Source: Raillietiella orientalis
Taxonomy: Eukaryota
Direction: 5' to 3'
Assembly: GCA_036172245.1 (NCBI GenBank)
Contig: JAYWIR010000113.1
Span: 1 to 64,000 of the forward strand
DNA: 64,000 bases
Shown: one piece after another, positions 12,951 to 45,200 of the stretch
Layout: each line of letters begins with the position of its first letter
Numbering within the stretch: position 1 is the first letter of the stretch
Notes under the pieces: model-generated
The model's input: only the letters and a program-made list of their open reading frames with translations
The model's database searches: none
Told to the model about the DNA's origin: nothing
Program-made: the position numbers and the translations under genes

Positions 12951-12959
12951 AATTATTTG

Positions 12960-14310: not shown

Positions 14311-14349
14311 CCGGCGAACCCACACAACACACGCCAACAACAAAGATAG

Positions 14350-14900: not shown

Positions 14901-17900
14901 TCAGTAACGACAAGTTCTCTTTGACAGGCAGAATCACCTATTCTGCCTGAATAAACTTAAAGACATTGCTATAAAGTTTTCTTCTATAACATTCAGGATT
15001 AAATGCTTTGTCATATCTATGTGAAAAACTTGTTCTAAGAACTGCACGCATTTCTTGTAAGTTCTTCTCAGAGTTAGCGGTTTTCGAGCTTGTCTCTGTT
15101 ATTGCGGCTGTTGAACGGCAGAAATGCATGTAAACACCGCTTGACCTACCAACGGAGACGTGAAACCAACGTTTCTTGACCTTCTTGACCTTGAAATTTT
15201 TTCTACTTCATTCTTTATGCCCAGTGTAGGCATAAAAGAAGGAATCCACGCCTACCTGCGTGACGAAATCTCGGCAGTTTTCCAAGTTTTTCATGGTCTC
15301 GAACGTGGTAGAGGTGTTGGCCCTACCTCCTTTTTCATTTTCCTGGTATCGCAGGAAATAGGCGATTGACTGTACCCAAATAAGGACTCTGTGAAAGCAA
15401 CTTTGTGCAGGACTCACAAATGCATTCTTGCTAACGTGAATGACCCATGGAATACGAAGAAAGCTTCCGGATCACTACGACCAGGCTGCAAAACTTCTCC
15501 CAGAGAGAAGAAAAGCCTCATAAAAACACATCACGTCATCTTGCGGTCGCTGTCTGCAGACATAACCACCGAACAGCGTTCATTAAGGCATGCAAGATAA
15601 GGGAATGTCGACCAGAACCGCCTGAATTCTAGTGACCTTTGCCCGTATCATCTTTGCGGATGCAAAAATTACAACGATTTCAGGCATCCACGTTCTCGGG
15701 GAGGAAAAGATGCAAAGTGAGCACCTAGAAATACTCTAGTAGTCCCGAGAGTATAGGACCTACTGTAGAACGAAGATGCATGTTAGACATACGACAACGC
15801 TCGCTCCGACTTCTGAGGATGATCCAAGTGCAGTCCGAACGCACCCTAATCAGATGCTTCCTCTTCTACCTCCCATATATCGGCTGCACTCTTTTTCCAG
15901 AAAGGAGGCGAACCCTCTCGCTGGCTTTGCACGCGCCTCGTTCTGCAGGACTCCTGAGCGACCCCGCACGCCCAACGCGCTCACCTTCACCGTCACAAGA
16001 CAAGCGCACTCGAGTGACGTCAGCCGCACGGAAAGAGTGCGACCGCTAGCCGCACTCTTGCGTCGGTCAGCAATGCACACCCTTCTTCCCGGAATCCACA
16101 ACGCACCGTTACCATCATCCTGCCACCCCTTCCTCGCCGTCAAGATCAGCACTCAGGGCATCAGCAAACCTATTTCGTGCCCTTACCTCCCACGCTTGCC
16201 CTAGTGACACGAAACCGGAGATGCGTCTATCTACTGCCTGCCTGGAAACAGCCGGTGCCTCGCGAGCGCATCCGCTGAAACTGCGTGAGCATTCACTGAC
16301 GTAGGGAGACAGATTGCTTCTCTTGCAGGGCGGCCGCAAGAGTCGATATGCTCGTCCGGTGGATGTCTATTAAGGGTACAGTCGTTTCGCAGCGCGCGCA
16401 TGCCACATTGCCGTCGACGGTCCACCTAATCTGTCGTGAGATCTCCTCAGCTTCGAGTTGCGCGGCTGCTGCAGTGGCTCGCTGCCTCACGAAGGAAAGA
16501 CAATCCGGAAAGCAGGTGATCGTAGCAAACACGAGCCATCCAGGTGGCACCATTTTCACTGAGTGTCCGACAGTTTCACTGAGTAGGCAATTTCACTCAA
16601 ACCACGTTTCTTCCTTGCCGAAATTTAAGCTGTGTTGCCATGGCGAGGTCACGATTGTTGGCCTTTCCGATTGTGTTGCTTCCTCTCCCTAGGCCGTTCT
16701 TTGGCCCCGTTTTTTGTTGCTCCCAAGACGGAAGCACAAATCCTTGAGTGCGAAGACTTCTCGGCTTGCATACAAGCCCTCCGGAGTGCGCGTTCATCGC
16801 CTAGATCCTGCCCTCAGGCCTCATGGTCGTGATGGCATCGGAGGTAAGTGACAGTGATCTCTGCTAGTGCAACTAGCGACTGATTTTCAGCAAGGGACAG
16901 CAGAGAATTCCATGCGAATCCAGACCCATGCCGATTTCCCCATTCTGTGCTCGTTAAAGAGAACCATCCGCAGCTTGTCTGTGCAGCACAGAAAGAGGCA
17001 AGCGGACATCGATGGACTGCAGAGAAGCTCGAAGTTGCTGCAAAAACCATCCAGAAGGGCGGTGAGAAAGCAGGAAATCAGATCGGTACGTGAACCGCAG
17101 CCGGATCTGAGACATTAACGAGTTGCGGTACTCTTTCTTACTCGAAAATGGGTATGTTCCAGGGGTTGACAGTAAAGGATGGAAGCCCCTCAGGACTGGA
17201 GACAAACCACAGAAGGACGGCAGAGGATGCTTACGCGAAACCGATTGAGGAGAACTGGAGACAGCGATGTCTGCGCATGCTTGAGGATAGCTTGGTGGAA
17301 GCAACGTGACTATCTGGCGGAGACAAGGTGGCAGTTGCAGGTTTCTGCCTTTGTTTTTCAGGAGTGGGGTCGCGACAGAGGACGAGAGTAAGCTCCGTCG
17401 GTGGGAGGAGATGCGCTTGGCATGCACGGATAATCTCTTGCAAGTGCTACAGGAGGAGGTAAATCTAAATGCAGCCTGCTGTGCTTTGCAGGATGATATC
17501 TCAGTAATCACAAACGCCAAGGAGGAAGAGCATGCATTGTTTGCCCAGAGAAGCAGATTCTGGTAAGTCGGCTGCAGGTGGTTACTTCTAGTGCCTTCAG
17601 CTGGTTGCTGGAACGCAGACTGTACGACAAGGAGTTGGCGGTCTTGACTTCCAATATGCCCAATACCGTTATTTCAAGTGTGGAAAGAAAGCTAAGGGAG
17701 GAGCTGAGATTTATGCGCTTTTGCATAACGATCATTAAGAGTTCCACAGCGAGGATCTTAAAAAATGAATTCGCAAACATTTTTTCCCTTCAATTGATGT
17801 GTGCGTCTAACTTTAAAACTACTTTCGAAGAGGTGCATGCTATCGAAAAGGTACAGCATCATAGAATCAGAATAGAAGCTGAGGATGAAAATTTCCGGAG

Positions 17901-19159
17901 GTTAGGACCTCTTCTCCATGAATTCTTTAACACATTCTTCACAGCAATATTTGCAATATGCAATTGGCCACTGCAATCCAGCAGTCGCGGGAAATTGTCG
18001 AAGAAAACAGAAAGGCATCCGAGACAATGGAAAGTATAGAGGAAACGAAGAGACAGGTGAGGGTAATCATCGCTTTTTCTCCGGATATACGTCGATGAAT
18101 TTTCCTCGTCCTTAGTGTAGCAACATCAACGATGGCCTCCTGGAGCACCTGAAGCACTTGAGGAATGCCCTTTTGTCAAAACTCCGAAGACGATGGCGAC
18201 TGGGCAGTTCCCTGGTCGGCCTGCACGAATACAACCAGCTCATGCTGAAAATGTTCCATGCCTTGGGTGCGTGCAGTAGTCAAAGGTGGGTGTGTCTTTC
18301 GACGCTGGTTCACGTGCTTACGGTCATCATAAGGATGGAAAGCTCTCGCTCATCCGTGCAGTATGCTGGCAGCACCGCTGATGCAAGAGCGCCGCGCGAG
18401 GAACAGTAGAGATTTGTCGGACGAGAAGCCGGGCACAAGAATGAGGAACCACGAGATCCTTGACCAATTGAGGAAAGCTTTTCAAAAATACCTCCAGAAA
18501 CCCTGCTCCTTGGATAAAGTTAAACGATGTTTAAACCTTGTACTGGAAGGTGAATCGTTTTGTCGCAGCCACAGACCCAAACTGCTCCTTGCCCCTGCAT
18601 GCTCCCTCGAACGACCGAAATATGTCTTGGCAACACAACGGTGTAATCCAGTGTGGTGTCGATGGTGATGGTTGAATGCTGTGAACTCGAGAGGGACAGG
18701 TTGCCACCCGTTTCTCTCAGAGCCACTACCGGGAGGACCACGCCGCTCGCAGTCGGTGCTGCAGCTTTACCGGAACCACCCTTCCGGTCACTGTGGCGTG
18801 GAGCTGGGTAGCTTCCTCTGCTGTGCTTCATGTATTTTTTATTTGACAAGGCAACGCGCAGACGGAAGTCCAAGGGTCGCCGAGCCGTTTGCTTTCAGCA
18901 GAACGCTCTATGTGTTCTCCGGCAGATCACATTACCCACAGTCGACCGTGCAGCCAGCCTCCTGTCTTTGCGCATTCCGGATTACAGCAGCTATCTCCTC
19001 CTTGGAGGGAGGTGCAATTGACGGTCAAGACACGCACTTTCGATCGGTTAGCGGTTGTCTCTTATTCTTACGGACGGCACTTCCTCCTGTAACGGTTGCC
19101 ACGTAGGGCAGACATACTCTGACGCCAGTTTCAAGGAGTAGCGGTGCAACTTCGTATCG

Positions 19160-19750
19160 TTTATTATCCGGGACGTTTATTAATAAAATCAACTGGAAAC
19201 TGTTCCTAGGTAGGGGAACCGAATGTGAAGGAGAGGGTTCCTGGCTTTGCTGCGCCACGACTTCCTGCAGCTGCATCCATGTACGCGCGAAATGATGTTC
19301 GCCTCCATGGATCGTCCCGGAACCGCGTAGGTTTGTTCCGGGCTCACCACAGATTCCGCGTTACTTTCCAACCGCGCGACCCACAGCTTCGAAAACAACT
19401 TGACGTCCGAGTTCACCAAGGTGATCGGACGCCAGTTGTTAAGTTGGCGCAAGTCTCCGCCTTTCGGCAGGAGACGCACCTTTGCTGAGCGGAATGAATC
19501 CGGGACATTCCTGGATTCACTCATCAGCGTCGCAAGTCTCAGCATCAAGAGAATGAGCTCCACTGCAAAGCACTGATAAAACTCTGCAGGGAGCCCATCC
19601 TCGCCTGGCGCCTTTCGTCTCTTCAGCCCAGCGATTGCGGACGAAAATTCATCCGCCGTGAAGGGCTCGTTGAGACGAAGTATTAGCGTCTCACAATGCG
19701 GCGTACTTCGGCTGGGGCCAAGCATTCCTGGCCCTTTTCGTCCAACAGGC
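19160..19750 (-). mobile_element. Family epsilon RT fragment with internal deletion running to a 3' end remnant
   Basis: KAPGEDGLPAEFY, NNWRPITLVNSD; very similar to 55560-56170; aataaacgtcccgg near 19165-19180. Confidence 0.75.
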
Positions 19751-20209: not shown

Positions 20210-22070
20210 CTTCGGCCGCGCCCGAGCACTCAAGGCACAGGTGGTCGAGCAGACAAGATGCTCCTAACTGCCAGACCTGGCGCTCGGCCTTGGCCTTGTA
20301 CACCGCAAGGTACCGGACGTCCGGGCATCGGGAGAATTGGCGGGCCTGCAGAAACTCTCTGCTGTTGGCCACGCCTTCCCCGAAGCCACGGGGAAGCAGG
20401 CGCAAGGGGAACCGGCTGCAGAATTCGCGGACCGATCTTTACAGGTCATCCCAGTCCACGAGCTCTCGAACGGCAAAGGTCCGGAGATGCTGGCGGAGGA
20501 GCTCCGCAGCCACCGGATTTCTTAACCAGTCGGCCGGCAACCTCCAGACGTGCGTCGGAGGGCCCTTGCCAGGCGGGAGTAGCTCAAACTCCTGCCTGTA
20601 GTGGTCGGAAAGCTCGGACGCCACGGGACCTCTGCGACCCACCCGACAATGCAGGTGATCGTCAAAAAACACATGGTCCGGCAAAGCACGCATCCCGGAA
20701 TCGTCGGCCAGCAAATTCGAGGAGTGCACGGATGCGCACACGTCGTTCACCACCCGTTTCTCCCGGAGACCGTGAGACTCCTCCGATAGCGCGTGGACGT
20801 TGAAATCCCCGGCTACGAGGTGAGCCACGTCGGGGCCGGAGTTGCTGAGCCAGCGGTTGCGCAGTCTCTCGAAAAACTCGAGTTTCTCGGTGCGACGCGC
20901 GGAGCCGCTCGGCACGTACACGTTCGTGACGACAAGGTTGATCGCTTCGGACCACTTGAGGACAAGTTGGCCCACACGAACTTCCTCGTCGAAACAAACG
21001 CTCCGCGCCGCTCCCGCCATACTGTCCCGGACAAGGAATGCGACTCTGCAGGTATTCTGGGAGCCTGACCTCCAATGGAGCGTCCCTCCTGCGCGAACTT
21101 GCAGATCGGCCAATTGCTGCTCGGAGAGTGCGTGAATCTCCTGCAGCAGGGCCAGATCCAAGTCGCGCAAGACGTTGGCAACCAATCGCCTCTTCTCGTT
21201 GTCCTGCAGCCAGTTGACGTTCCAAGAGGCCACTCGGACGCGACGGGAAGAAGCCAGACCGCGCATTGCTGCTACGGACATGGAGGTGCGTTCCTCGCCC
21301 CGTCCGGCGGCATCAGGAGGATGAGGTAGTGCAAGCGCTTCCTGTCCCTGTCGCACCGCTCGCGGCTGGCTCGTTGTAGTCAAGGACCATTGCCTCGGGC
21401 TCCGAGGAGCATCGGGAACCGTTCCTGGCATCAGGCTCTTGCCTGGCAAATTTTGGCTACCGCGAAGCCCTGGCCTTCACCGGGGCTTGGCGAGCCTTAG
21501 CGCTGCCCTCGGACTCCACCTCGGAGTCCGAATTGCGCGTGCGCGGCGGGCGTTTCGCCTGCCTCTTTTTTTGCTGGCAGCCCGGAGCTGGTCCAGCACT
21601 CTTAGAGGGTGCCTTCGTCGCCGATCCCCCTTTCGGGGTCACGGCTTCGGCTGCTCCCCTCTCGCCGCGGGTGTTTGCGGCGGCGCGCGCGGCGGCAGCA
21701 GAAACTTTTCCTTGCGCCTTTCTGAACGCACGGGGTTGCCTCTTCACCCCGCCTACCTTTTTGATCGGGAAGTGGGAAGGATCGCGCGGTTTGCGCTCCT
21801 TCTTTCCCCCGACGAAGGTCCAGCCATCCTCGCCGCCTTCCTGTTTGCCTCGGTTGGGCTCGAGGGCTTCCAGCGTCCTTCGCATCCTTTCCAAGCCCTC
21901 GGATACGGCGAAGCAGGCCAGTGTCTCCTTCGCCACGTCTGCCATCTGCACCTCCTTACCGGAAGGTGCGGGCAGAGTGGAGGGATTCTCGGAGGTCGCG
22001 CGAGGCTTTTGTGCCTTTGCTGGCGTTCGGCCCGCCGTGGCCGACTTGCCTGTCGCGAGCAAAGGAGCGC
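20210..22070 (-). mobile_element. Family epsilon-like element: ORF1 C-terminus and endonuclease
   Basis: ORF 20439-21449 (SWNVN, LLQEIH, GDFN, SDH), with a basic low-complexity ORF1 tail upstream. Confidence 0.85.
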
Positions 22071-27503: not shown

Positions 27504-27717
27504 TCCCTTCTCCTCCCCACAAACTCTTTTGGTTTTTTTTTCATATCCTAATTTTTCTTTTTGTTTTCATCCCCATCCCCCTCCACTGCGGAGGAGCGTC
27601 ACGCCGGGCTGCCCCCGGCACCCCTGCAGGTCCTGTGTTGTGTGGCCGTTAGTGGGGCCTCGTACCACGTTCTGTAGAGTTTTGAAAATAAACGCACCGG
27701 GCGTACCCGGGTGGAAA

Positions 27718-28480
27718 CCATAAATCCCGCAGGTAGGCGATGCAGGGGGAACTGGTCGTAGAACTCCTGGAACGACCGCTAGAAGCGCTCCCAGTTTTGA
27801 GGTGTCTGCACGCTGACGCTCCGAATAATCGCGCGGAGCTGTTCCGCCGCGTCGGGAAACTTCATGCAGTCCCCTGGCAGACGCCACGCTGACAAGGGGG
27901 CGTTCTTGTCGCGCGGACGCACTTCGAACATGATCCGACCATGGTCCGACAGCTCGGATGGTACCTTGCCGCGCCTGCCCACCCGAGAGCATAGGCGCTG
28001 ATCAAGGTACACGTGATGGATGCTGCTTCCCATGGCCGTATCCCCGGCCAACAAGTTGCGCGTGTTCATTTCTGCGCACAACTCGTTGATGCGGTCGTCC
28101 AGTGCATCCGGCGCACCTGAAAGCAGGCGCAGATTGAAATCACCTACGATCAGGTGCGCTTTACGAACTCCTGCATCGGTCAGCCAATCGCGTCTCAGGG
28201 CAAGGTAGAATTCCCTTCTTGCCTTCGCCCTGAACGCGTTATTTCCGCTAGGAGCGCATAGGTTAGTGACGACCAGGTCGATAGAGTCGGACCAGCTGAG
28301 AGTCAGCTGATCGACGCGACCTGCGTCATCGAACCGAACGTCCTTTATTGCGGTCTCGATTTCTTGAGAAGCAAGAAGGCGACACCGCTTCATTCCGCGG
28401 TGCCCCAACGCCACAACAACCGTCCACCCGAGATCCGTTCGATCTCTTGCGCTCTTACAGTTCAGACGTGTTTCCGCGTC
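27718..28480 (-). mobile_element. Family beta endonuclease fragment cut at LPAGF
   Basis: ORF 27779-28492 (GDFN, SDH); close to 41536-42240. Confidence 0.85.
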
Positions 28481-28689: not shown

Positions 28690-29791
28690 TACCTCCCAAA
28701 AACCAGGACTTTGCGATGCGGAGTTCCAGGCATATGTGTCATCAGGATACATGCCTGCACTCCGTTATAAGGTCAGTGCGCCCCTTAACGGGAGAATCGG
28801 TCGAGAGCTCAATGATGAGCTCGTGCGCATCCGCGTTCGCGAGGAGGAACTCCTTGCCACAATGCCAGCTGGAAGGATAAAATATACGAAGATTCGGTTC
28901 AAGAACGCAGCACTTGTGCAGCGCCTTCTCCGTATGCCGTCGACCACCAATGGAAAGGAAGTCGTACCTACCGCGATGGACGACTCTTTTGTCGTTCAAT
29001 TGTGCGACATCGAACCGGAAATCTCCGAGCGCGATGTCGTAAGTGTGCTGGCAAAGTTCGTCACCGTGCACGCTCTGTGGAGGAGGCCAATTCCTCTGAA
29101 GGATTTCCCCTCTGTCCACATTGAACAAGCCTCCGCGCGGATTACCGTCAAGAACAGGGGTGTTGTGCCTGAGCAGCTGTAGGTGAACGGCACGGTCGTT
29201 CACCTGTGGTTCATAGGCCAGACTTGCGCGTGGGAGCAGTGTGGCAAGCATGGGCACCGAATTATAGAGTGCCCCTCTCCAAAATGCTGCTATTGCAAGA
29301 TTCTGGTACTTGCAAGAAAAAGAGCCGCAGCGGAAATTCGTCGGTTTTAAGAGACCACTGCACGAAAAGCCGCAGCGACAAATAAAAAACGTCGTCCGCA
29401 AAAACTCGGAAAAAACAACGAGCGATCCTCGGATGAAAAGAAAGGGTCCCCGCCTACAACGCCCTGAAAGGGGAAAGTCACGGCGGGGAAGCCAATTAAA
29501 AAGGGGCGCGAGGATTTGACGCGTGCCGTGCCCTCCCTCCCTGCCGAACTCTCAGGCACCTCTCCGAGCCAGGAAACAGGTAATCTTCGTTTAACCCTGG
29601 AGGGAAAGGTAGGAAAACAGGAAGATCGCAACAGTGCGAATACTTGTTGCCCCGTTCCGTTGTCCCTTCCAAGTTCCGCACAGCCCTACTGCAGCGCAGG
29701 TCCCTCGGCAAAGGCTACGAAAGCCGTAAAAAGCAGCGTCACGATAAGCAAAAACCCGCTGCATGCAGTCGCCCCATCGCCGACTCGGCAG
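28690..29791 (+). mobile_element. Family epsilon ORF1, N-terminal half
   Basis: YMPALRYKVS...VHALWR; homologous to ORF 52605-53462. Confidence 0.8.
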
Positions 29792-30096
29792 TTTCCCCCA
29801 AGTCCAACGAGGGGTGGGGTAAATTTATCTTTCTAAAATTTTTCTATAAAAACATTCACACTAGAATCTCATCCATACCATTAGCACTTTGTTTACCACT
29901 ATGAAGTCCTTGGGTTCTCACACGTTCTGCACTCATGGTGGGTTCCCTGCTGTTTGGTCCCGGGCGTCGTCTTCTTTCCTCTTCAGGATGAATCGGTACG
30001 TCCACGCTCGGCTTTTCTCACAGATTCTAATGCCGATTTTCCTCTTCAGGAGCCCTTGTAGGATCTCCATCGGTGGTGCGGCACTTCTGGCTTTCC

Positions 30097-33000
30097 TCAT
30101 TTTCCACCACCGAGTAGTATGGCGGTGATAAAGAGGGCTATGGTCGTCCTCACCATGGGATTGTAACAGGGAAAATTACCATCCCCCTCAAACATCCCGG
30201 CGAGGATCTCCATTACGGACCTTGTGGTGAGTCTGATGATCCTTTTCAGGATCAGCCAGTCATGCAGCAATGTGGCAAACGTCAAGACGTGAAGTCTAGT
30301 GTCGATGTCTCTAAATGCTGTGCAGTCTCGATCTTCCCTTATTCCAGTGTAGTGCTGCAATCGGGACCCACTCGGGATTCCTCCATGATAAAACATCAGC
30401 AGGTCATCCTGCGTGCCCGGCGGAAGGTCACTTCTCCAGAGCGTCGTGCCAATCGCTAACAGGTTGATTCGGTCACTCCCGTAGCGATCGGCGGCTTCCT
30501 GGAGGGCACTAATATCACTGCCTTCTTCTTGAATTAGTCTTCGGAGGTTTGTTTTGGTTACCCTGGACCACGCAAAGTCGTTGTGGCTGAACCACACTTC
30601 GCGAGTCATGTGGGTAAACCTTCCTAACATCATCTCTATATACCTAAGTATAGGAGTGTTATGTAGGTACCCTCCACGTTTCCACTCCTGGATTCGTTGA
30701 AGGGTAACTCTGGACCGCTGGTGGATCCAGCTTCTCGTGTTCGGCGGGACAGGAAGCATCCAAGGGATCACCAGGATGGACTCGTCCTGCCAGAGTTCCC
30801 TACTTCTCGGCACGATCTTGATTTTGTGCTTTCGCACCAGCCGTTGCTTCCTCGTCCAGGTTGGGTCGATTTAATTCCATTTGCCTGCTCGGCCTAGCAG
30901 CGCACTGATCAGGCCTTCGAGTTGTTCAACAACAACGCGTAGGCCCTGTGCGACGCATGCGGGCAGTAATCCCAGTGATTGGCAATATCCAGGATGTGTC
31001 GCGTATTCATGATTTCTAAGGAGTGTACAAGCGAATTCATCGCGGAATTGTCTTCTTTCCTGGTACGACACAGGGGCTTTAGTCGGACTCTTGGGCGATA
31101 GTGGCCCCACAGTCTTTTCCTCTGCAGCTTGTCGAACTCCCTCGTGCTGTCCTTGTTTATCCTCGCGAAGGCCGCCCCGAAGAGCACTTTTGGAAGGAGT
31201 ACTCCGTTTTATATGTTGGCCTTTCGCTTCATTTCAAGGTCAGTTCGGGTGTACCTGGCTGCTTCCTTGGCCGTTTTCCCTAGGATCTCGGTCCACAATA
31301 TCTTCGACGCGGTGACGTCGCCAATGTAGACACCCAGGTACTTGGCCTTGTCCACCGTTCGGAATCCTCTCCCCGCTAAAGTGGAGAGATCGAAGATTCC
31401 AAAGGGCAAGAGCTGGCTTTTCTGGGCGTTGATCTTTAGACCCAGCCCTCGATCCATCAGGTCTAACACATCCAGAAACGCTTGTTGATTTCTCTCTCCC
31501 TTGATAAAGAAGAGTAGATTATCAGCGTATGCCAGATAAGTTAGACGCTGCCCATCGATTGTTAAGCCTTGCAGTCGTCCGCTTTTCTCGATAAAGGACG
31601 ACAACCCCTCCATGTAGATGACGAACAGCATCGGACTTAGCGAATCGCCCTACGGGACACCCCGTTCCATTCGGATTGCTGCCGTCTCCTGGCCGTTAAT
31701 TTTAATTCGGCAGTACTGGTTCTGGAGTACCACTCTCACGAAGTTGCTGAAGTGTTCCGGAAGGCCTAGTTTCTCCAGAACCTTCAGCAGCATCCCATGG
31801 TCGATCGTGTCGAAAGCCTTCTTCATGTCAGTGAACACCAGCGCCAGATTCTCGTCGACGTATCGGCTGAGTCCGACGGTGTCCTGGGCACACTTGACAT
31901 TGTCCAACATGTGAAGTCCAGGGACTGCACACCTTTGGACGGAAGAGATGATCCTCGACAAGATCTTGCCTAAGCGGTTGGACCAGATCTTCGTGAACCA
32001 CTTGGCTCCCGAGTTCAGGAATGAGATTGGCCTCCGTTGAGCGACTTGCGTGAGGTCGCCTCCTTTTGGCAACAATCTCATCCGACTCTCGTAGAAGGAC
32101 TGTGGAAGTCTTCCGTCTTCGCGGATGCAGAGGGTCCACTGGTGGAACAAACGCAGGTAGGCATGCAAGTACCGCTGATAGTGAGTGATGGGTACGCTGT
32201 CTGGGCCCGCTGCCACGTCCTTGCGTAGTTGACCAAACGCAGTCTTCACCTCGTCTTCGGAGAATTGCTCTTTCAGTCTGTTCCGCTGGAGGTCGTCGGT
32301 CGTCTTCTCGAGGTAGCTCAGAAAGTCCTGTTGTCTAGAGCGACAGAGATGTTTTCGCCTGAAGTGTTTCGTGTAAAGCCTGTGAAAAGCATCCACGATG
32401 TTTTCAGACGACTGTCGCTTTTCACCGTCGTACTGGATGCAGAAGATATCTGTTGCCAGATTTCTTTTTTCCAGCACGCCGACTTCCCCTTTTATGTTCT
32501 TGAAGTCGTACCGACTCTGGTACTGATCGCAGTACTTTGATAGTGAGCGATCTTGGTTGTTCAGATCCCGGTACGCCTCCTGCCTTAATCGCCTATCCCC
32601 GAACTGCAGGTTTGCAAACAGGTGTATCCTGTGTTTCAGGCGGTCCCTGCCGGCGACTCTCCGGATTGTTGTTGCCTTCAGAATCGTCTCCAGGACAGCC
32701 TGATGTCCTGGATGAGTTTTGAACCAGGCGAGCATGCTGATGAGCGCCGTCCTGGTGCCTTGCTACCGTCGAGGATTCTCCGTTCTTAGAAAAAACCGCA
32801 GCAGGGGGTGATCGGACACCGTGGTTATAATGATTCGAAAACCTTGGATGCGATTCCCAAGTTCGGTGCTGCGCAGGACGTAATCGATCGGCGTGTGACT
32901 TGCAGTTCGCCACTCCAGTCCGAACTCTTCGGATAACCACCGATACGCCGTCCTTCCTCTGGAGTCTTGGGAGTGAGCGATCTCATCCAATATGTTGAGA

Positions 33001-33449
33001 TCGTTAGCAACAATCACGACGTCCTTTGGGGCAACCTTTTCACGGAGTGCTGCATGCAGCGCCTCCGCACAACAATGTTTTAGCCTGTGCGTCCCGTACA
33101 CGTTCACCAGGATGAGGTGAACAGTAGCGGACCAGGCCAGTCGCACGCCGATGATTCGTCCGTGTTATGGACAGAACACTCCCAGAATAGTGGAGGCCAA
33201 GCTGTTCTTGATTAGGACCGCCACACCCTGCGTGTTCCGTTCTCCCTTGCTGACGAAAATCTGCCCGTTAAATCGCCGTTGCATTTGCTGACTAATCTCG
33301 AGACCCATCTTGTGGTTCTCCTGCAGGCACACTATGTCTTGTTGTGCGATGGTTCGCACAATACATTTTCTTTTTCCCTGGTCGACCATACCGTTTACAT
33401 TCCAGGAGGCGATGTTCAGCCTCCTGGCGGTCGACAGGGAATAGGCCAT
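30097..33449 (-). pseudogene. ORF2 EN-RT of family zeta, frameshifted
   Basis: ORFs 33165-33554, 32763-33146, 31650-32735, 31209-31631 and 30097-30837. Confidence 0.88.
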
Positions 33450-33462
33450 AAAAGGGGAAGAC

Positions 33463-35145
33463 CTATTTCTTGGTCTTCCTGAGCTTCCTTTGTGTGAGAG
33501 AGCGTGCTCTTCCAGACGATAAAGAAGCAGCGGGCTTCTCGCTGCCGGCGTCACTTTCTGTTCCGGTGAGGTCGATTACTTCCGCCTCCTCCGTCGATTG
33601 TTCGGCCCAAGCGATCAATTTTCGAGATATCGTCTCTATCTCGACCTTGGCGCAGAAGTTGTCCCTTACGTCAAGAAGCTGTTCCTCTAGCTTTTCGCGC
33701 TCGGTGACCTTCACAACCTGGTTGACCTTCTCCTGTGCATTGCAGATCTTCTGCAAGAATTTCTCTTGCTGGGAACCGCTCTGTACCTCTAGGACTTCAT
33801 TAGCCAGTGATGCCAGCTCCTCCGTAGATTGCAGAACCTTGTGCGACACCGAAGTTTCTTCGGCTATGTCTTCTACCGCGCCTTCCAGCGCTACCTCTAT
33901 CTTCTCACCTTCTTGCTCTTCATTTTCCAGGATAAGAGGCGTTTCTAGCTCCTTGACGAGCATCCTCCTCTTTCCTTTCTTTCTTACCTCAATGAAGCCG
34001 TCCGCCGATACCTGGACGGCTTTCTTCACCTTCTCCGGCCTTCCTACCTTCTGAAGCTGTTCCGCCTTCTTGGTGTTTCTCTCTCTCACGGGAGAGAGAC
34101 CTCGAATCCTTCTGCAGTTTGCAAACTTCGGACAGCTCCATTTGGCATGTCCGTGTTTCTTGCAGAAGGAGCACTCCTTCGCCTGCGGGCAGTTTCGTAC
34201 TTGATGTCCTACTGTGCCGCAGCGGAAACAACGACACGTTGGGCAAGCGCCGGCCCCTTGGCCGAACTGCTTTCACCCGGTGTAGAATATCGGTTGTTGC
34301 CGGTAACGCACGTTCACTCCCTTGGATTGTCCGTCAAGAACGGCTAATCCAGGGATCACAGCCCCCTCTTTCAACTTCATTTTGGCGATCATGTCGCCAC
34401 AAAATCTATTTCCAGAGATGTTCTGAAATTCAAGGTCCAGAACTTCCCCATACTGCTCCAAAAAGTTCCACACCGTTAGTTGCGGTGTGAGAATGGAGAT
34501 GCCGTTCAGAAAGACGGTTGTGTATGACATTTTGCCAATACCACAAACCATCCTCCCTTGCATATTGATCCCCTTCTGGATTAATCGCTTTCTAATATTT
34601 TCACAGTCTGTGAAGACTGTGAACCCGTTATTTGCCGGTATGATCACCTGTATGCGATAAAAATTGATATCCGTCTTATCGATGCACAGATACACCTCCT
34701 TGATTTTGTTAAATTTTATCAGCTCAGTCTTAAAAATGATAAGCTTTACATTCGGCCTTAAATCCACAATTGGCTGATCCACCTTTTGGACTTTGCCGCA
34801 TAGCAACTTCCCAAATTTTCTTGGTGGGTGGACACTCGGTTGTCCAGCCGCCACCGACGCATAGGAAAAGGGCTGCGCCGCCGCAGCCGAACAAGATGGC
34901 GTCTCGCCCTGCACCGCGTGGACGCCCGTGGGTCCTTACTGGGTCGCCTCCGCCGCGAGCGAACCTTCGACGTCGCCACCGTTGCCACAGCGGGCGGCAC
35001 CCTCGGCATCGCCGCTGCAGGCGCGACCTTCGCTGCCGCGGGCACGACCCTTGGCATCTCCGCCTCCGGCGCAGCAAAGCTCGCCGCGAACGCGATCCTC
35101 AGCATGCCTGCCACCGCCTCGCCGTTGCCGCGCGTTACCTCCATG
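33463..35145 (-). pseudogene. ORF1 of family zeta, frameshifted
   Basis: AMEV N-terminal motif, RRM-like segment (LEQYGEVLDL), CCHC remnants near 34100-34270, acidic coiled-coil tail. Confidence 0.75.
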
Positions 35146-35194
35146 GCTTCTATAGGGGACGACGGTCTCTCAGCCAGCAACGCCCCCAGAGAAC

Positions 35195-36615
35195 GCAGCG
35201 AAAATACCAGAGGTTTCCGCAACTACTGTTGCGGAAGCCTACGAAAATCGCAATGGCGAATGGAAGGCTGTGGAGAGGAGGAAAGAAAAATCTCCAAAAG
35301 AAGCGTCGCAGCATCTATCCCTGAGCTCTTCAAAGGAAAAAGCAGTCGCGCGAATACGTAAACACGCGCAGCTTGTGCCTCTTTCCAAGAAAAAGCCAGC
35401 AGCCTCAACGCGTGAAGGTCCGCTTAAGTGACCGCCGAGAAGACAATTCCGTGGCAATCGGACGGATGCAAGCGCACGTCGATCGTGCGAGCATCAGACT
35501 CCGTAAAGGAGTCCGATAGCGCCGCTGAAGGACGCATTACTCGCACAAGAGCGAGCGCCCGCAGGGCTGGAGCCCTGAGGCGTGACACACTCGCCGCGAT
35601 ACGGCGAGTGCTCACTCCGCAACCCACAGGTTCTGCACCCGGGGAGGAGCACTCGATTATGTACAGCACAGTTGAGGCTGGTGGCAACGGCGCCCTCCAG
35701 CCCGTCGTGCTGCTTACTGCCCGCTCGCCCGGTGAGGCGAGCACCACGGCCTCGCTTTGCCAGCCGTGATGAGGGCAATCGCCTCTTCTCGTCGTGCTGC
35801 CGTGATGAGGGCAATCGCCTCTTCTCGTCGTGCTGCCGTGACGTCTTGGAACGTCAACGGGCTCCCACAAGAGGAGAAGAGGCGACTAGTGGCTCACGCT
35901 CTGCGAGCTTTCGACTTGACGCTCCTGGAGGAGATTCACAGCATCTTCGAAGAGCAGGCTGCCGAAATCGAACAGCGCGCGGGCGGAACGCTACTTTATA
36001 GGTGCTGCGTTGCACGTACGTGCGTTGTCGCTTTCCTCGTGCGAGGAACTTTGCAGGGAGCGGTGCGCACCGTTCGTTTCGACACGGAAGGCCGAGTGGG
36101 ATAGCTTGTACTCAAGTGGTCCGACTCGATCGACCTTGTCGTAACCAACGTGTACGCCGCGCCGTGCGGTGCTGGGCGATATGCCGAAAGGATTGAGTTC
36201 TTCGGTACCGTTAAAAGCCAGTGCCTTACTCGATCTCACCCTGCTGTGGCCCATTTCATTGCGCGGGCTTTAACGTCCTCCTGCTTTCCGAGAATATCTC
36301 CCACAAAAGGGAAAAGTTGCTAGCGTAAGGGATGTGCGCGTCCGTGCACGCGCGCAACTTCTTTGCTAGCGACCCTGTTATGGCAGCCACGCTGGACCAC
36401 GTACACCTTGATGAACACTTGCTCTCTCGACTGGGTCGGAGAGGACCCGTGCCGTCCGTACATTCAGACCACGACAGGCTCGAGTTCGAGTTGCTCCCGC
36501 CAGGCAGGGTGCCTCCAAACTGTTTTTGGAGGATGCTGGAAGACTAGCTAAGCCAGCCGGAGGCAACTGAGCATCTTTGCTAGTACCTTCTCGGATTTGC
36601 CATAAGAGAGCTCGA
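35195..36615 (+). mobile_element. Family epsilon: ORF1 C-terminus and endonuclease, cut at GFAIREL
   Basis: LQPVVLL ORF1 tail, TGATG junction 35767-35771, SWNVNG, SDH. Confidence 0.85.
35763..35834 (+). repeat. Exact 36-bp tandem duplication at the ORF1/ORF2 junction
   Basis: gccgtgatgagggcaatcgcctcttctcgtcgtgct present twice. Confidence 0.95.
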
Positions 36616-39600
36616 TTTTCACCCGGTTGCGGCGGGACGTTTATTCTTTGGAATAAAACAAACGTTGGTGGCTCACCAGGTGGTCCGGCCACGCACTGAT
36701 ATACAAAATTTAGCCTGGCGGTTCACCGGTTCGTATTCCGACACGGTCCTTCACGACAGCAGAGGGGCCAAGGACAAAACAAAAAATAAAACAAAAAAAA
36801 GAAATATATAAAATCAAGATCTGGGAGGCACGGGAAGGGAGCACATTCTGCTGTTGGGCCGTTACATGCTTTGCAGGATGCCGGCAAGCAGTTTTTGCAT
36901 GTTTGAATCCAGGGGGGTCCATCCTGTCGCCGTCCGCATAAATTGGGCTGCACACTCGAGGGCACCCTTATCGCGAGGTCCTCTTGTTGCTTTGCTCCAT
37001 GCAGCGACGATCCCGCGAAAGCAGCTCAGAGATCGTAACGAGGCCGAGGGCCGAAGGGAGTTGCAAACGAAGAGGGATGTAATTGCGTCTCCGGGGTTGC
37101 CACAGGGGTTACCGATTGCCCTGGCGAAACGGTTCCAAAGGTGCCAAAGAGCCACACAATCCGAAAGGAGGTGAGTGAGGGACTGCCGTTCTCCATACCT
37201 CGCACAATTAAGGCTCACCGCTCCCCAAATCCAATGGTGTCGGCGGACGTTGCATGGGAGTCCCCAATACAGCAACAATAGCGCCGACTCCTGCCATTTT
37301 AAGGAAAGGGTGGAGGTGTTCATCAGCACCGGGGGTCACTTTAATTGTTCTCGCGGAACATTTAGCAGCTCGCCTCAGCGCAAAAGTTTAATGAGGGTGG
37401 TAGTCCGGGCCGCGGTATCGCAGAGAATTCCCGTTTTTTATTACCCGATCTTTTTCTCCGTACCCGAGATTTTGACGTAAACATCCCATTTCGCAGCGGT
37501 GTTACCGTTTAAATGTTCCGCGAGCGGAAACAGCATTGCAGCGAGGGGAGTTTTTCTTGCCCACGCTCGTTTTTGGGGGTTCTCCAGGACCTCCTGGAGC
37601 GTCAGGCGGTCATTATGGGTGAAGAATTGTTTCTGCCCTTCTTGAGTGCGTTGCTGGTTGCTCTTTGCCCACGTCTGAACCGTTTCCTGCAGCCATGCAG
37701 GTCCGTTAACGGGCAACAGCAGAGCCATCCTGCGTTCTTCCTCGTCAGGTCAGCCACTCTCCGTAGCTGCAACCCGCAGTGACCGACTTGGCGGCGCCGA
37801 CGGAGCGCAAGGAAGGATGACAGTCCCACCTTGCCTGTAGCCTGCTCGACGAGAAGACGTGCGGGCTCGCACCAACTGCCACTCCAATATTTCGCCACTA
37901 GGGAGAGTAACCGAAACTGGAGCTGGAGGTTCAGTTGCTCTAGCGTCAGGAGGCCGAGACCGCCGTCTTGACGCGGAGCGCTCAAGTCCTCAAGCCGGAC
38001 TGGTTCCCTCCCATTACCCCACAGGGCAATCCTTAGGAGATCCTTCGTCCGCTTTTTAGTGTTTGTGGTGGGGGGAATAACAAAAAGCAGGGAACGGAGG
38101 AGGGGCGCCGCGAATCCGTTCCACACCGCGGCCCGTCCCGGCACGAGAAACCTGCGGACTTGGAACGGGCCGATCTCCGTCTCTACTTTTTGAAGGCAGC
38201 TGGACCACACATCCCAAGGGAGATATTGACCCTTCGGCAAACCGAGGTACTTGAAGTATTGTACCGTGGGGACCCCCAAACGGACCCAGTTTGGCTGCCC
38301 TGCCAACGCCGAACCGAATGGCATGACGGACGACTTCGCCCTGTTCACCACAAGCCCGGGTCCCCGACTTAGCAGGTCGAAGAACTCCTCGACCACCGAT
38401 GCCGGGGTGGACATAGGGAGCATCAGAAGTAGGTCGTCCGCATATGCTGACAGCGCGGGCGTACCGGGATAGTCGCGCGGCAGGTGTGCTAGAGTTTCCC
38501 TCTACGCTCTTAGTACCAACTCAAAGTAGGTGCTAAAGAGCAAGGGACTGAGGCTGTCGTCCTGCGGTATGCACCGCTACACCGGCACGCCGTACGCCAT
38601 TTGACCTCTGAAAGAGATATTGATGAACGCGCTGCGCCAGCAAGAGCGCAGGTAGATCAGTAAGGAGGGAGGGAAGCCCATGCGTCCCAGGAGCTCCAAC
38701 AGGAGATCCTCGTCCACGCAGTGAAACGCCTTATGCAGATCGACTGCAATCGCTAGGGTTCCCTTCCCCTCCTGGAAGTCCTGTCCCTGCCCGGCTGACG
38801 CTCCCAAAGCGGGGCTGCCAACCGTTCCGTCTTTCATTTCTTGCCTACACTGCACATGAAACCATGTGCTCGCGAAGAAGAGGTCGGCATCCATACTTCG
38901 CCCGGGAACAGCGTAATTTTGCTCCGGTCTAATTATGGATTTGGTCACCTGCCCCAAACGCGAAGCTTACAGTCCGCCGATCAGCTTCGCGTCCGTATTC
39001 ACAATTGTGATGGGACGCCAGTTGCTGAGTTTCCTGAAGTGGAATCCTTATGAAAGGATTCTCACTCTGGCTGAACGAAAAGATGCGGGTACATCGCCTT
39101 TATCTCGGATCAGCCTTGTCAACTCAAGCACCAGGGGTGCCAACTCTGCCGCGATGCATTCAAAAAACTCCGCAGGCAGGCCGTCCTCCCCTGGTGCTTT
39201 CCGCCTCTTGAGACTTTTGATACCGGCGAGAATTTCGCCGGTGGTAAAAGACTCGTCGAGGCTTTCCTTCTCCTCCTCCCCTATTGCCGGGCACCGTCCG
39301 GAAGCAAGGCCCGAAAGGCATCTTGGTTCGGGAGCGCCCTGGCGCAAAGAAAGGAATAATAACGCCGCACGAGGTGCCGTATTCTAGCCGGTGCCGAGGG
39401 CTCCCGGCCCTGTTCGTTCAGCAGGCTGGCGGACCCGGATTGACAGGCTTGAAGTTCGACCCCGGCTCGGTACTCTGCCAGGCGACGGACTTCAGGTGTC
39501 CTCGCGTAACGACAAGCATACAAGTACGCTCTTTCGTTACGGACGTCTTTCCCAAATCCCCAAGGCAGGAGGTGCAAGGGGAACTTCTCGCAAATCTCGC

Positions 39601-39646
39601 TGACCGAGACCTTAAAAAGGTCCCAATCAGCGAGATTTCGGAGCGT
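36616..39646 (-). mobile_element. Family beta element, 3' part (linker, RT, zf, 3' UTR)
   Basis: KAPGEDG, DLHKAF, YADD, zf ORF 36862-37329; ends aataaacgtcccgccgcaaccgggtgaaaa. Confidence 0.88.
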
Positions 39647-42242
39647 CGAGCCGACATGTCTTTTAACTGCTCCCGAATTCCGATTTCCGGTGATGTTTTG
39701 TGTGGTATGGGTGGAGGATTAGGCAGCAATGCCTGATTCCACCACCGGTGAGATTCTGGGGGCGATGACCCCATTGTCCCCGGAGGAGATGGAAGTGGGG
39801 GATCTTGCACCCAGTGATGCGCCCCCGTCCCCAGCCAGGGCTTGGAACGCCGTGGCTGCCGCGCTCACGCCGGCGGCTGTGGCGGAGATGCGGGCCTACC
39901 TGGAAGAGGGGTACAACCCACCCCTTCTATACAAGGTAGGCGGTTTATATTCTCCCGAGAATGCGCGCGCCTTCTCGCGGGAGATGCGCGCTATCGACGT
40001 AAGAAAGGGGTATCTTCTGGCAATGTCCGTCAGAAGCTGGGGACAATTCGCAGATGTAATCTGCAAGGAGGCAACTCTGGCGCAGAGGCATCTGCGAACC
40101 CCCGAAATGATGGGCAGCCGGAGGCTTCTTCCAATAACGGAACAGAGGTCGGTGATCATTCACTTGACCGGTATCACGTTAAGGATGACCAAGGAGGCCG
40201 TCCGGAACGAAATAAATAAATTTTGCGATCGTCAACGCACTGTGAGGGAAGCCAAACTTGTTTGCTCAATGCGACGGGTTTCTTGGCGGCCTGGGTGCAG
40301 CGCGAGTGGCGGTTCGCGAGGGATGTGAGTTTCCCCACAAACTCACCGTCAACGGTGAATCCGTTGACGTGTGGTACGTGGGGAAATCCAAGTTTTGCGG
40401 CTGCTGCAGCAGCTTTGGTCACCTATAAATGAGCTGTCCGAGCGTGCAGTGCGAGCAATGAAACAAGAGGGGCACACCCGTCTGGTGTGCCCCCAAAACA
40501 CAGTCCGCGTCGTGTCCGCGAAAAACACGAGAAAGCGCGAGGCAAAAAAGAGAAAGAAGCTGGCAGCTCGTGCTGCTGCTAAGGAGGTCACCTCCGCCAC
40601 CAAGGCGAAGGCCAGCCCCGAGACCCCGGCGAAAAACGCCGAAGAGGTCGAGGGCGAGGGTCAAGAGCCAGGGTGGCAGAAGGTGGACCCCAAGAAAAAC
40701 TCCCAGAAGAAGGGTAACAACGTGGAAGAACGGAGCAAAATTTATCCGCGCCGCGAAAAAATTAAAAGCTGCTGCGTCTTCGTAGAGCGGATTCATGCCA
40801 TCGACGAATGCGGCGCTAAAGAACTCGCTGCTGCCTCTGCTGAACCCTCTGTTGACAAAGTCAACAAGGAGGAAAGCGAGGCGGCGGTGTCCGTCATCGA
40901 GCCCACGCTCGATCACGTCGTCTTCAAGCGCGCCGCGGAGGAGCTGGCTGCCTCGTTGTAGCCTGCCGCCCATAAGGCTGGCAAGAAGGCCGTCAGGCGT
41001 TCAGTTTCCCCTCAGCAGTCGGCCACTTCCGACCCCTAGGTGAAGGCCGGAAACACAGCATCCATCTCCGCGGCACCCCGCAAAAACGCCGGACGAAAGT
41101 CTACAATGCCCCAGGAGATCGTCTTCCCCGACGAAGGGGAACAGATGGCTTCCGGTAGCGAGGGTGCCATGAGCGTGGGAAACTCCCGGGACCCGTCGCC
41201 CAAGAAAATTCCACGCTCGGACACGGATGGAATGGAGGGGATGGAGGCCGAACAGGTACTAAATGTGCCTGCAGAGGCCTCCGTCCTCGTTCTGATGGTC
41301 CTCGTACCGATGGACCTTACCCCACCTACGCCTCGACGCCACTTTCCCAGCCATAATTATGGGAATCGCCTCTCGCCGTCGTCTGCTGATCGCCTGTTAG
41401 AACGTCAACGGGCTAAGCGACGACGGCAATAGGCGTAACGTGGCTGCCACCCTGGCATCCTTTGACCCGGTGCAGCTGCAGGAGATCCACGTGAACGCCG
41501 CAGATCAAGCCCGGGAGATCGAACGGATCTAGGGTGTGCGGCTGTTGTGGCATTGCGGCACCGCGAAGTCAAGCGGTGTCGCCTTTCTGCTTCGGCCAGC
41601 CATCGAGACCGCTATAAAGGACGTTCGGTTCGATGACGCCGGTCGCGTCGGTCAAATGACTCTCAGCTGGTCCGACTATATCGTCCTGGTCGTCACCAAC
41701 CTATACGCTCCTAGCGCAAACTCTGCGTTGAGGGCGAAGGCAAGAAGGGAGTTCTAACTTGACCTGAGGCGCGATTGGCTGACCGATGCAGAAGTTCGAA
41801 AAGCGCACCTGATCGCAGGTAATTTCAACCTGCGCCTGCTTTCAGGTGTGCCAAATACACTGAACGACCGCGTCAACGAGTTGTGCGCAGAAATGAACAC
41901 GCGCAACTTGTTGGCCGGGGATACGGCCATGGAAAGCAGCATCGATTACGTGTACCTTGATCAGCGCCTATGCCTCGGGTGGACGGGCGCGGCAAGGTAC
42001 CATCCGAGCTGTCGGACCATGGTCAGATCATGTTCGAGATGCGTCCGCGCGACAAGAACGCCCCCTTGTCAGCGTGGCGTCTGCCAGGGGACTGCATGAA
42101 GTTTCCCGACGCGGCGGAAAACCTCCACGCGTTTATTCGGAGCGTCAGCGTGCAGACACTTCAAAACTGGCAGCGCTTGAAGCGGTCGTTTCAGGAGTTC
42201 TACGACCAGTTCCCTCTGCATCGCCTACCTGCTGGATTTGAA
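39647..42242 (+). mobile_element. Element 5' part (probably family beta): ORF1 and endonuclease, cut at LPAGF
   Basis: ORF1 from 39729 (SPEEMEV, YNPPLLYKV); ORF2 ATG 41359; GNFN, SDH. Confidence 0.85.
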
Positions 42243-45200
42243 GCTGCCACCCGGGTACGCCCGGTGCGTTTATTTTCAGAAACTCCTTAAAACGTGGTAC
42301 AAGGCCCCACTAACGGCCACACAACACAGGACCTGTCGGAGCGCCGGGGCCAGCCCGGCGTGACGCTCCTCCACAGTGGAAGGGGATGGGGATGAAAACA
42401 AAAACAAAAATAAGGATGAGAAAAAAAAACCAAAAGAGTTTGTGGGGAGGACAAGGGATCACATTCCAATGGGAGGAGAGCCCATCCTTCGCAAGATGCT
42501 CTCCAGGTCCCTCTTCATGCTTCGCAGATGAGGCCATGTCGCAGCTTTCCGCATGAAGCAGACCGTATACGGGATGACATCCCTCGCGTTGGCATCCACT
42601 CCTTCGTCGCGAATGTCGCTCCAGGCCGCCACGATGCCCCGGATGCAGCGGCGGTCTCCGAGGGGTGCGGCGGGCTGGAGAGCGTTCCGCACGAAGAGGG
42701 ACTGAAGAACGTCTCTGTGCGCGGCGCTTATTGGGAGGACGAGGGTCGTCATGAGCCGTTCCCACAGGGTTCGGAGGGCAGCACAGTCAACAAGTAGGTG
42801 TGGGAGCGATTCCCGCTCTCCACACCTTGCACACTAAAGCCTTACACTTTTCCGCGTCCAGTGGAAGCGGCGCACGTTGCAGGGTACACCCCAGTGCAAC
42901 AGCAGCAGCGCCGACAGTTGCCACATCAGGGGGAGAAGCCTGGATCCGATTAATATTGGGAGCCACTTCAGGTTAACCGTCGGGATGTCGAGCAGCTCGC
43001 CCCATCAACGAAGTCCGAGCGGGAGAACACTCGAAGTCGTGGCGTCTACCAGTTCTCCCATGGTCCAACCGCTCCTCTTCTTTTCCTTGCCTGCGATTCG
43101 GCAGGAGACTTGCCACTTTGTCTTGCAACCGCTGATTAGTGCCCTTCGTAGGAAGAGCAGGGTCGAAGCTAGAGGGGTAGTCTCCGCCCACGTGCTCCTG
43201 GAGGGACACTCTAGAGTAGTCCGCAATGTGCAGCAGGCGTTGGGGCGGAATCGTGGGCGGTTCCAGTCCGGGGAAGTCTGGAGGTTCGGCTTGGCCCACG
43301 TCGCAACGGCTTTTTCCATTTAAGCGGAGGAGTTGGCAAGGCTGCATACCGTCGAGCCGTTGTCTCTCACCATTGCTTCCATGCGCCCAAGGAAAAGGCC
43401 GCATCTTCTGAGCTTCCTGCCAGAGCACAGATGGTACGACGCGAGTCCTTGCGTCCTGGACACACGGCTGGCGAAGATGCGGGCCGGAACGCACCAAGGG
43501 GTGCTCTATGACTTTGCTGCGATAGGGAGGGTGCGCCATCACAGCTGTATGTCCAGGCGCTCCAGCGTCATGAGGCCGAGACCGCCGTCCCGACGAGGAT
43601 CACATAAGTCATCTTGAGGCACAGGTGGCCCTTTTCGCAGCCCAAGTGTCCATTCCCAACGCAGCTGGCGGCTTCAAAGTGGGATTGCCAATCTATCCGT
43701 TAGTGTTGTTTAGACAGCGCTTCACATGGAAGCATTTGCTCGCGAAGAACAAGTTGAAATCCATACTTCGCACGGGAACAGCGTATGTGTGGTCCGGGCT
43801 AATTATGGAGTCTGCCACCTGTCATAGTCGCAAAGCCCACAGTCCAGCGATCAGCGTGGCGTTCGTATTTACAATTGTGATCGGACGCCAGTTGCCTAGG
43901 AATCTTAGGTCTCCTCCCTTCGGGAGGAGCCTCACACGGGCTGACCGAAACGAGGCGGGTAGGTTGCCTTCGTCTCGGATCAGCCCGGCAAACTGACGCA
44001 CCAGAGGGGCAAGCTCTGTCGCGAAGCTTCGAAAAAATTCTTCAGGCAGGCCGTCCTCCCCTGGCGCCTTACGACTCTTGAGCCTTTTAATACCGGCGAG
44101 AATTTCCATGGTAGAAAAAGGCTCGTCGAGGCTGATCCTCTCCTCCTCCTTTATTGCCCTGGCTCCGTCCGGAAGCAGGCGCCGCGATGCGTCCCGCTTT
44201 GGGGTTGCCCTAACGTAGTGGGAGGAATAATAATGCCGCACGAGGTGCCTGATCGCGGGTGGCGCCGTTCGCTTTCAGCCCTGGTCGTCCAGCAAGCTGG
44301 CCGACCCGGATTTTCAGGCTTGGCGCTCGGCCCCGGCTCGATATTCTGCCGGGCGACGGACATTGGGGGTCCTCTCGTAACGGAGGGCCTGTAAATAGGC
44401 CATATGATTCCGAGCTTCTTCCCAAAATTCGGGTGGTAGGCGGTGCAGGGGGAACTCCTCGCAGAACTCACGGACCGAGGCCTTGAAGAGGTCCCAATCT
44501 GTGTGACTGCGGAGGGAGACGCCTCTCAGGAATTCGCGAAGGTGCTTCTTCGCACCTGAGAGCCGCGTCCAGTCCCCAGGCAGCCGCCACGCCGTGGACG
44601 GGGGTCCTTTGTGGCTTCGGCAATCCTCGGCGATTATCCTGGAATGGTCCGACAGCGTCGACGCAACTTTCCCCCGTTTGCGGACCCGTGAGCACAGGTC
44701 GGAACCAGGAAGAAGTGGTCGATGCTGCGGTACATTCTTCCGCGTCCGCCAACAAGTTGCGCTTGCGCATGGCAGCGCACATCTCCTTGACCGTGCGTTC
44801 CTGTGCTTCGGGCTCACCTGGCAGCAGACGTAGATTAAAGTCTCCAGCTATCAGGTGTGCCTTCCGCGTATTCGTGTCGGCCAGCAAATCGCTCTCCAGG
44901 GTCTCCAGCAACCTGTTACGGTCGCTGTATCCCCCTTTACCGCTTAAGGCATACACGTTCTTGACGATCATTTCGATCGAGTCGGACCAGCTGAGATTCA
45001 GCTGACCGACCCAACCGGCGTCATCAAAGCGTACGCCCTTCAAGGCAGCGTCGATAGCCGGCTTCACGAAAAACGCGACCCCACAGGTGTTGCGAACGCC
45101 GCATCGCCAATACAGTCGACCTCCCGCGATCGTTTCGATCCCCTGGACGTCTGCCGAGGTGATCACGTGGATCTCCTGCAGCAGGGCCAGGTCGAACTCA

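Follow-up and report, generated by a model that had tools for sequence, protein, structure and literature searches.

Two sister families of LINEs in the genome of Raillietiella orientalis, A and B, insert antisense at one homologous coding site in the ORF2 of other LINEs. The shared target site is real. It lies just after the endonuclease domain, as an earlier note on this DNA had proposed, and is met to the nucleotide by 60 of 60 sampled ends of A and 58 of 60 of B. The reading of that note, in which a single family ('beta') accounts for both junctions, is wrong. Judged on sequence, A and B are very probably site-specific APE-type LINEs that inherited a target in the ORF2 of other LINEs and move by TPRT, and the window (the whole stretch analysed, 64,000 nucleotides of contig JAYWIR010000113.1 in assembly GCA_036172245.1) would hold two of their insertions, joined later. 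Genome-wide searches covered the 210-Mb assembly, and the family names A, B and H1-H8 were coined in this analysis.

By self-comparison, the window contains decayed, nested LINEs that are 65-90% identical to one another and carry APE endonuclease, RT and zf-RVT domains. Both junctions read by the earlier note, at 36616 and 39647, are present in the sequence. The last base of A on the minus strand is 36616 (...GGTGAAAA), followed by TCGAGCTCTC, which is the antisense of host codons; on the plus strand this host reads ...GFAIREL. B starts at 39647 on the plus strand behind GCGAGATTTCGGAGCGT (39630-39646), the antisense of TLRNLA in a minus-strand host that reads TLRNLADWD. Alignment bears out the claim that these are homologous codons in two different hosts, and places the shared motif, R-x-L-x-D-W-D, in a helix ~35 residues past the endonuclease. 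The 5-mer WCGAG occurs at 273 of the 128,000 strand positions of the window, and the concentration of sampled ends at the site greatly exceeds chance. Three further features of the window are an A/T-skewed LINE of a different kind, with CCHC knuckle and RT, inside the H5 region (28745-35360, minus strand); a 36-bp stretch duplicated exactly in tandem where the H5 ORF2 begins (35763-35841); and a region of lower G+C (47-55%) at 11500-19200 that is almost without match to the LINE families of the window.

Table 1. Features of the A and B junctions, their hosts and related sites. Positions are those of the window unless a locus is named.
Feature	Position	Strand or orientation	Identity or basis
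Host of A: H5 LINE, end of ORF1 and ORF2 endonuclease to ...GFAIREL(D), cut off by A	33920..36615	+	88% to H5 reference L160; with H5 in EN tree (100/99)
3' copy of the 5-bp TSD of A (TCGAG on element strand)	36611..36615	-	
3' third of A: end of RT, C-terminal region, 3' UTR	36616..38514	-	89-90% to full-length A, 71% to B
3' UTR of A: AATAAA, short inverted repeat, A4 end	36640-36645 (AATAAA)	-	
In-register crossover between A and H1b in conserved RT region	38515..38522	.	
Host of B: H1b ORF2, LRNLADWD into RT	38523..39643	-	89.7% to H1b L138, 78.9% to H2
5' copy of the 14-bp host-derived duplication of B (GCGAGATTTCGGAG)	39630..39643	+	
CGT brought by B, in place of GGT or GAT of native H1-type hosts; matches main host H2	39644..39646	+	
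5' half of B: 5' UTR, ORF1 (ATG 39729), endonuclease, own unfilled QTLQ.W site	39647..42240	+	
3' end of H1a-like LINE in B at GFG motif (another target site)	42245..43630	- (antisense)	81.6% to H1a L136
Empty A-type target in H4 host (AVRELVDWDD)	20440..20480	-	uninserted reference
H2 KAGKKA site	40965-40990, 970-980; L094, L088, L132-L135	sense	
H5 in B near QEIHVISADQARE, B position ~1889	41484-41519; L082, L083, L086, L090, L094, L095	antisense	
Endonuclease without ~13 residues at L1 hairpin	L096:5597-6280 (-); window 41330-42010		alignment

The two pieces that the earlier note assigned to one family belong to different ones. The 3' piece is A (89% against 71% to B), with ~90% identity in each 150-bp bin to 20 other A loci, and the 5' piece is B (88-89.5% to full-length B against 67% to A), with which it also groups in the EN tree. 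They had been said to barely overlap; in fact there is no overlap, as they cover positions 3639-5535 of A and 1-2626 of B. Full-length copies from other loci, tabulated with their flanks, assign the pieces to different, sister families, the very outcome that the note had named as contrary to its own proposal. Between the pieces, diagnostic sites are H1-type at 38523 and above and A-type at 38514 and below. This step in identity and the in-register breakpoint in RT indicate that A-in-H5 and B-in-H1b were separate events, later joined by recombination, and on the same grounds 36616-39646 was rejected as one self-targeted element. Flanks from different host families are found in 3 of 11 full-length A copies (L066, L078, L079), which suggests that recombination reshuffles junctions. 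The window copy of B is itself interrupted at the GFG motif.

Both families consist of ~5.5-kb L1-group LINEs and are 72.9% identical to each other. They were collected genome-wide without flank, A by its 3' end (best 40 of 805 candidates scored, 30 fetched and 20 extended to 8.5 kb) and B by its 5' end (best 40 of 346 scored, 30 fetched and 20 extended). The A 5' end is reached in 11 of the 20 long loci, and all 11 are A-type there and start CGAGAGCGGACG, unlike the sequence at 39647; nine of these full-length copies measure 5,450-5,548 bp and the other two have internal deletions. Similarly, the B 3' end is reached in nine of 20 long loci, all nine B-type, 5,515-5,536 bp in length and ending GGGTTTCAA. 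Among these 11 A and nine B copies, no A end is joined to a B end. The endonucleases of the two families are ~79% identical. In the EN DNA tree (33 stop-free copies, one distant row omitted) A and B are sisters (100/98) and form separate clades (100/100 and 100/99). The EN protein tree also joins them (93/86), and an RT tree made by a quick method places B beside a third family (91) rather than beside A alone. Median pairwise identity is 91% among A copies and 95% among B copies, and the A copies are the older.

One copy of this group, L096, has an ORF1 of 554 aa and an intact ORF2 of 1173 aa from stop to stop, and matches PF03372, PF00078 and, weakly, PF13966. As in APE-type L1-group LINEs, there are an ORF1 and an ORF2, the latter with an APE endonuclease at its N terminus, an RT and a zinc-binding region at its C terminus. 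As in elements of the TPRT type, there are TSDs (5 and 14 bp) and an AATAAA followed by 2-4 A; a long poly(A) is absent. The predicted fold of the endonuclease is of the human L1 EN type (pLDDT 89; Foldseek E 6e-16, with human L1 EN as the top structure match), and the catalytic motifs are present. In homology searches the relatives of L096 ORF2 are distant, with best matches at 24-28% identity; the best named matches are fish proteins at 27%, which we take to be Tx1-like. Throughout this LINE group the endonuclease is without ~13 residues at the target-reading hairpin of human L1 EN, and the families are still site-specific. A 2-residue insertion after YAPSG is common to A, B and one relative.

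The sampled ends, which are the best-scoring or exact-match ends and so a subset of all copies, fall on the site in 118 of 120 cases; the threshold for a target-specific LINE given by Kojima, in the available part of PMC4494074, is more than 20% of flanks of one kind. All 30 A 3' ends are at the site, 27 in hosts (eight in H3, ten in H4 and nine in H5, including the window copy) and three directly before another A. The same is true of all 30 A 5' ends fetched from 42 matches (27 in a host, three in tandem). For B, 29 of 30 5' ends are at the site (26 in a host, three tandem-like), and L060 is without its first 49 bases. Of 30 B 3' ends fetched from 78 matches, 29 are at the site, seven in tandem and 22 in hosts (H2 13, H1-like 6, H7 3); the remaining one (L116) is not clearly on site, and the 5' terminus of this element is itself interrupted by another LINE. 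The 5' junction rebuilds the target, and tandem copies result from this. In L039 and L040 the B 5' end follows an element ending ...CCAAGTTTACA, with a spacer of 14+3, and this upstream element is possibly a third family using the same site.

The 3' junctions of A and B fall at the homologous base, past the second base of the codon following Leu. This base is on the host coding strand, and the insertion is therefore antisense. With the junction marked by a slash, the A target is roughly CCCAGTCC/WCGAGY and the B target CCCARTCN/NNGAGRTTSCGGAG. Among the matches listed, 15 of 124 A targets (193 matches) and 17 of 101 B targets (206 matches) are filled. That A needs YTC behind the core was rejected, since CGA stands there in tandem insertions. 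The used hosts of A are told apart from the unused H8 better by the base preceding the nick than by YTC, and none of the ~20 H8-type sites listed is filled.

The target duplications of the two families differ, and neither is the 17-18 bp of the earlier note. (T/A)CGAG flanks full-length A copies at either end, with the first base following the host, giving a TSD of 5 bp, or 6 where the first base of A matches the host. In H2, B is flanked by a 17-bp repeat, and B tandems are spaced by the same 17 bp. Empty H1-/H7-type sites have GGT or GAT after base 14. CGT is absent in 20 of 20 listed empty CCCAATC-type sites, while the filled ones have CGT or TGT in 5 of 5; across 11 loci with filled H1-/H7-type 5' junctions there are eight CGT, two TGT and one AGT. 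The presence of CGT in filled but not empty sites indicates that B duplicates 14 host bases, at least 10 of them certainly host-derived, and brings CGT itself. The apparent TSD is then 17 where this CGT matches the host (H2), and a plain 17-bp TSD for B was rejected because the last three bases do not follow the host. Thus the 17-bp estimate does equal the apparent TSD of B in H2, but it came from joining the flanks of two families and is wrong for the element at 36616. All families examined begin GAGCGGACG; the few additional 5' bases seen in A and B agree with their commonest hosts and, on sequence, look captured. No 5'-truncated copy was found on site in 60 short and 20 long loci, so the stagger is not readable apart from the 5' leader.

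The two families divide their hosts. Among the sampled ends A occurs in H3, H4 and H5 and B in H1, H2 and H7, and no end of either family lies in a host of the other. In the EN trees the hosts of A form one clade and those of B another (100/99 and 100/100), and H3, H4 and H5 are 72-75% alike at the site. A and B also spare themselves: their own-type site is filled in 0 of 105 cases among the matches listed (111 matches, four of them not A/B-like). In protein this site reads QTLQ, against REL or RNL in the hosts. At the Leu beside the nick, 17 of 18 A/B-like copies have CTT and 49 of 51 others have CTC, a synonymous difference that is a lead only, since it amounts to one ancestral change and CTT makes up 28 of 151 Leu codons in the ORF2 of B.

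Most of these insertions appear to be independent, since filled hosts are mostly nearer to empty copies: of 43 filled hosts compared across five host groups, 32 have an empty copy as closest neighbour and six a filled one, with five ties. No pairs exceed 97% identity in both flank and element. Duplicate loci are found (L035/L036, L039/L040, L084/L085, L103/L104 and L012/L024). Element and flank identity are correlated for A (rho 0.35-0.58), which is read as shared age; duplication would give the same.

With junction positions, TSDs, tandems and host use read directly from the copies, we infer the enzymology as follows. The endonuclease would nick the host coding strand first, and the freed 3' end would prime on the end of the RNA, with its AATAAA, short inverted repeat and 2-4 A. 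The other strand would be opened by a second break, at a distance of 5-6 bases in A and 14-17 in B, a position in which the sisters have presumably come to differ. A handful of target-derived bases at the RNA's 5' end may then let the cDNA end anneal to the cut target and give the uniform full-length 5' joints, as in Drosophila R1. The TPRT chemistry underlying these steps is that described in the available part of PMC1950540. In the window, the ends would have been juxtaposed by recombination in RT between A and an H1b copy.

That a single family with a TSD of 17-18 bp made both junctions retains next to no probability. It would fit the homologous site, the common orientation and the similar length of 5.5 kb, and likewise the relatedness of the 5' and 3' ends and the apparent 17-bp TSD of B in H2, but it was rejected on the 72.9% identity of A and B, their separate clades (100/100 and 100/99) and the full-length ends, which are never joined among the 11 A and nine B copies; moreover, the TSD of A is 5 bp. 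A subtler alternative keeps the second cut the same in both sisters and lets TSD length depend on the point of a longer overhang at which the cDNA, through its shared 5' GAGCG start, anneals. GAG stands at positions 3-5 of the A target and at 3-5 and 12-14 of the B target, both TSDs end in GAG, and the common GAGCGGACG start is of the kind needed. However, pure microhomology would sometimes allow the nearer GAG, which B uses in 0 of 29 full 5' ends, and we regard this account as somewhat unlikely.

It is rather improbable that targeting comes mainly from base pairing of co-transcribed flanking target on the RNA and not from endonuclease specificity. In nearly all copies the 3' junction bases track the local host (ACGAG in H4, TCGAG in H3/H5), and one family uses one exact bond in hosts only 72-75% alike, although the H2-like bases at the 5' end of B, the ~13 residues missing at the L1 target-reading hairpin and the few 3' junctions that begin with the first bases of another host (L022, L124) speak for such pairing. 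Duplicated loci, flank swaps and the element-flank correlation of A could instead come from a few old insertions multiplied by segmental duplication and gene conversion, with no strong targeting. This is highly unlikely given that the homologous base is hit in three host families by A and at least three by B, that the closest neighbour of a filled host is, in this rough form of comparison, mostly an empty one, and that tandem re-insertions make up 3 of 30 A and 7 of 30 B 3' ends.

As sister site-specific LINEs, A and B appear to function in the manner of R1 and Tx1 without being R1 themselves. R1 elements belong to another clade, defined by a 28S rDNA target, and the target of A and B is LINE ORF2. 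In the available part of PMC2718515, Drosophila R1 lineages share a bottom-strand site but not the one on the top strand, with a 14-bp TSD, variants of 8-13 bp and a 9-bp deletion, target sequence at the RNA's 5' end gives precise joints, and tandem arrays are separated by the TSD (Stage and Eickbush 2009). A and B resemble these lineages in an apparently shared first nick, a probably lineage-specific second cut and TSD-spaced tandems. The R1 target, however, is rDNA and one sequence, whereas that of A and B is coding DNA of diverged sibling LINEs and is split between two families.

Other parallels come from LINEs that enter transposons. Zepp (Coccomyxa C-169) and ZeppL (Chlamydomonas) are, like A and B, L1-type LINEs in nested clusters, which they form by insertion into existing copies (available parts of PMC3446292 and PMC8226300). 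A further mark of Zepp is one cluster per chromosome, at centromeres. Zepp inserts into copies of itself, leaving 3' fragments for the most part, whereas A and B hit other families, with full-length 5' ends at the site; apart from tandems at a rebuilt target, 0 of the 105 own-type sites listed hold such a self-insertion. In the Tx1 clade, Tx1L inserts in Tx1D, Tx1-Mar in Mariner-N4_AMi and Tx1-8_Crp in LTR elements. These too are APE LINEs with a fixed site and orientation in another transposon and with tandems around the TSD. Their targets are DNA transposons or LTR elements, in contrast to the ORF2 of sister LINEs, and reciprocal targeting is not described for them in the available part of PMC4494074, from which all these features are taken. 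In the part of the literature covered, no example was found of sister LINEs that share out sibling LINE hosts at a single ORF2 coding site, which is weak evidence of absence.

LINE-in-LINE targeting is common in this genome, and several LINE clusters per contig are visible in the genome match lists. H2, the main host of B, lies at full length in the ORF1 of B in L094 and is also present at that site in L088. H5, a host of A, occurs antisense in the endonuclease of B in 6 of 11 interrupted B loci examined, and in L082 both halves of B remain around it. H8 is found antisense near position 4871 of B, another fixed site, in the C-terminal region of ORF2, in 6 of 30 loci (L106, L114-L117, L126). 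In the copies seen, the 3' flanks of H3 and H4 are non-LINE.

Other placements were observed alongside these. H2 inserts in sense at a KAGKKA motif in the ORF1 of B and B-like families. The GFG motif of B, which lies 25 codons downstream from the R-x-L-x-D-W-D site, holds antisense insertions of H1a-like elements (42240-42245 and 27717-27722). H3 is found inside the ORF1 of A (L074 and L075 at position 1271, L063 at 1295) and of B (L088 at 1137).

One tentative reading, which we hold possible rather than probable, is an evolving predator-prey web of LINEs, in which A and B tracked diverging host clades, shifted the second cut by 9 bp, escaped themselves and were struck back by their hosts. An ancestral family would have aimed at one conserved ORF2 motif and then split into A and B. 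The A/B lineage would have altered its own copy of the site, including the synonymous change of CTC to CTT, thereby escaping itself. The hosts would in turn strike fixed sites in B (H2 in ORF1; H5 and H8 in ORF2), and all of this would be done with an endonuclease without the hairpin that sets target choice in L1.

Each mechanical feature of A and B has a precedent in R1, Tx1 or Zepp; what is new is the A/B pair, its partition of hosts and its self-sparing. The pair offers a clean and testable instance of a change in specificity, and provides a natural experiment on how APE endonucleases gain and change sequence specificity: two ~79% identical enzymes act at the same homologous bond in different sequences, with duplications of 5 and 14 bp, and dozens of insertions can be read. 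It also shows LINEs that spare themselves and exploit the conserved coding motifs of their competitors as safe sites in many copies, a behaviour that would account for the build-up of LINE-only clusters.
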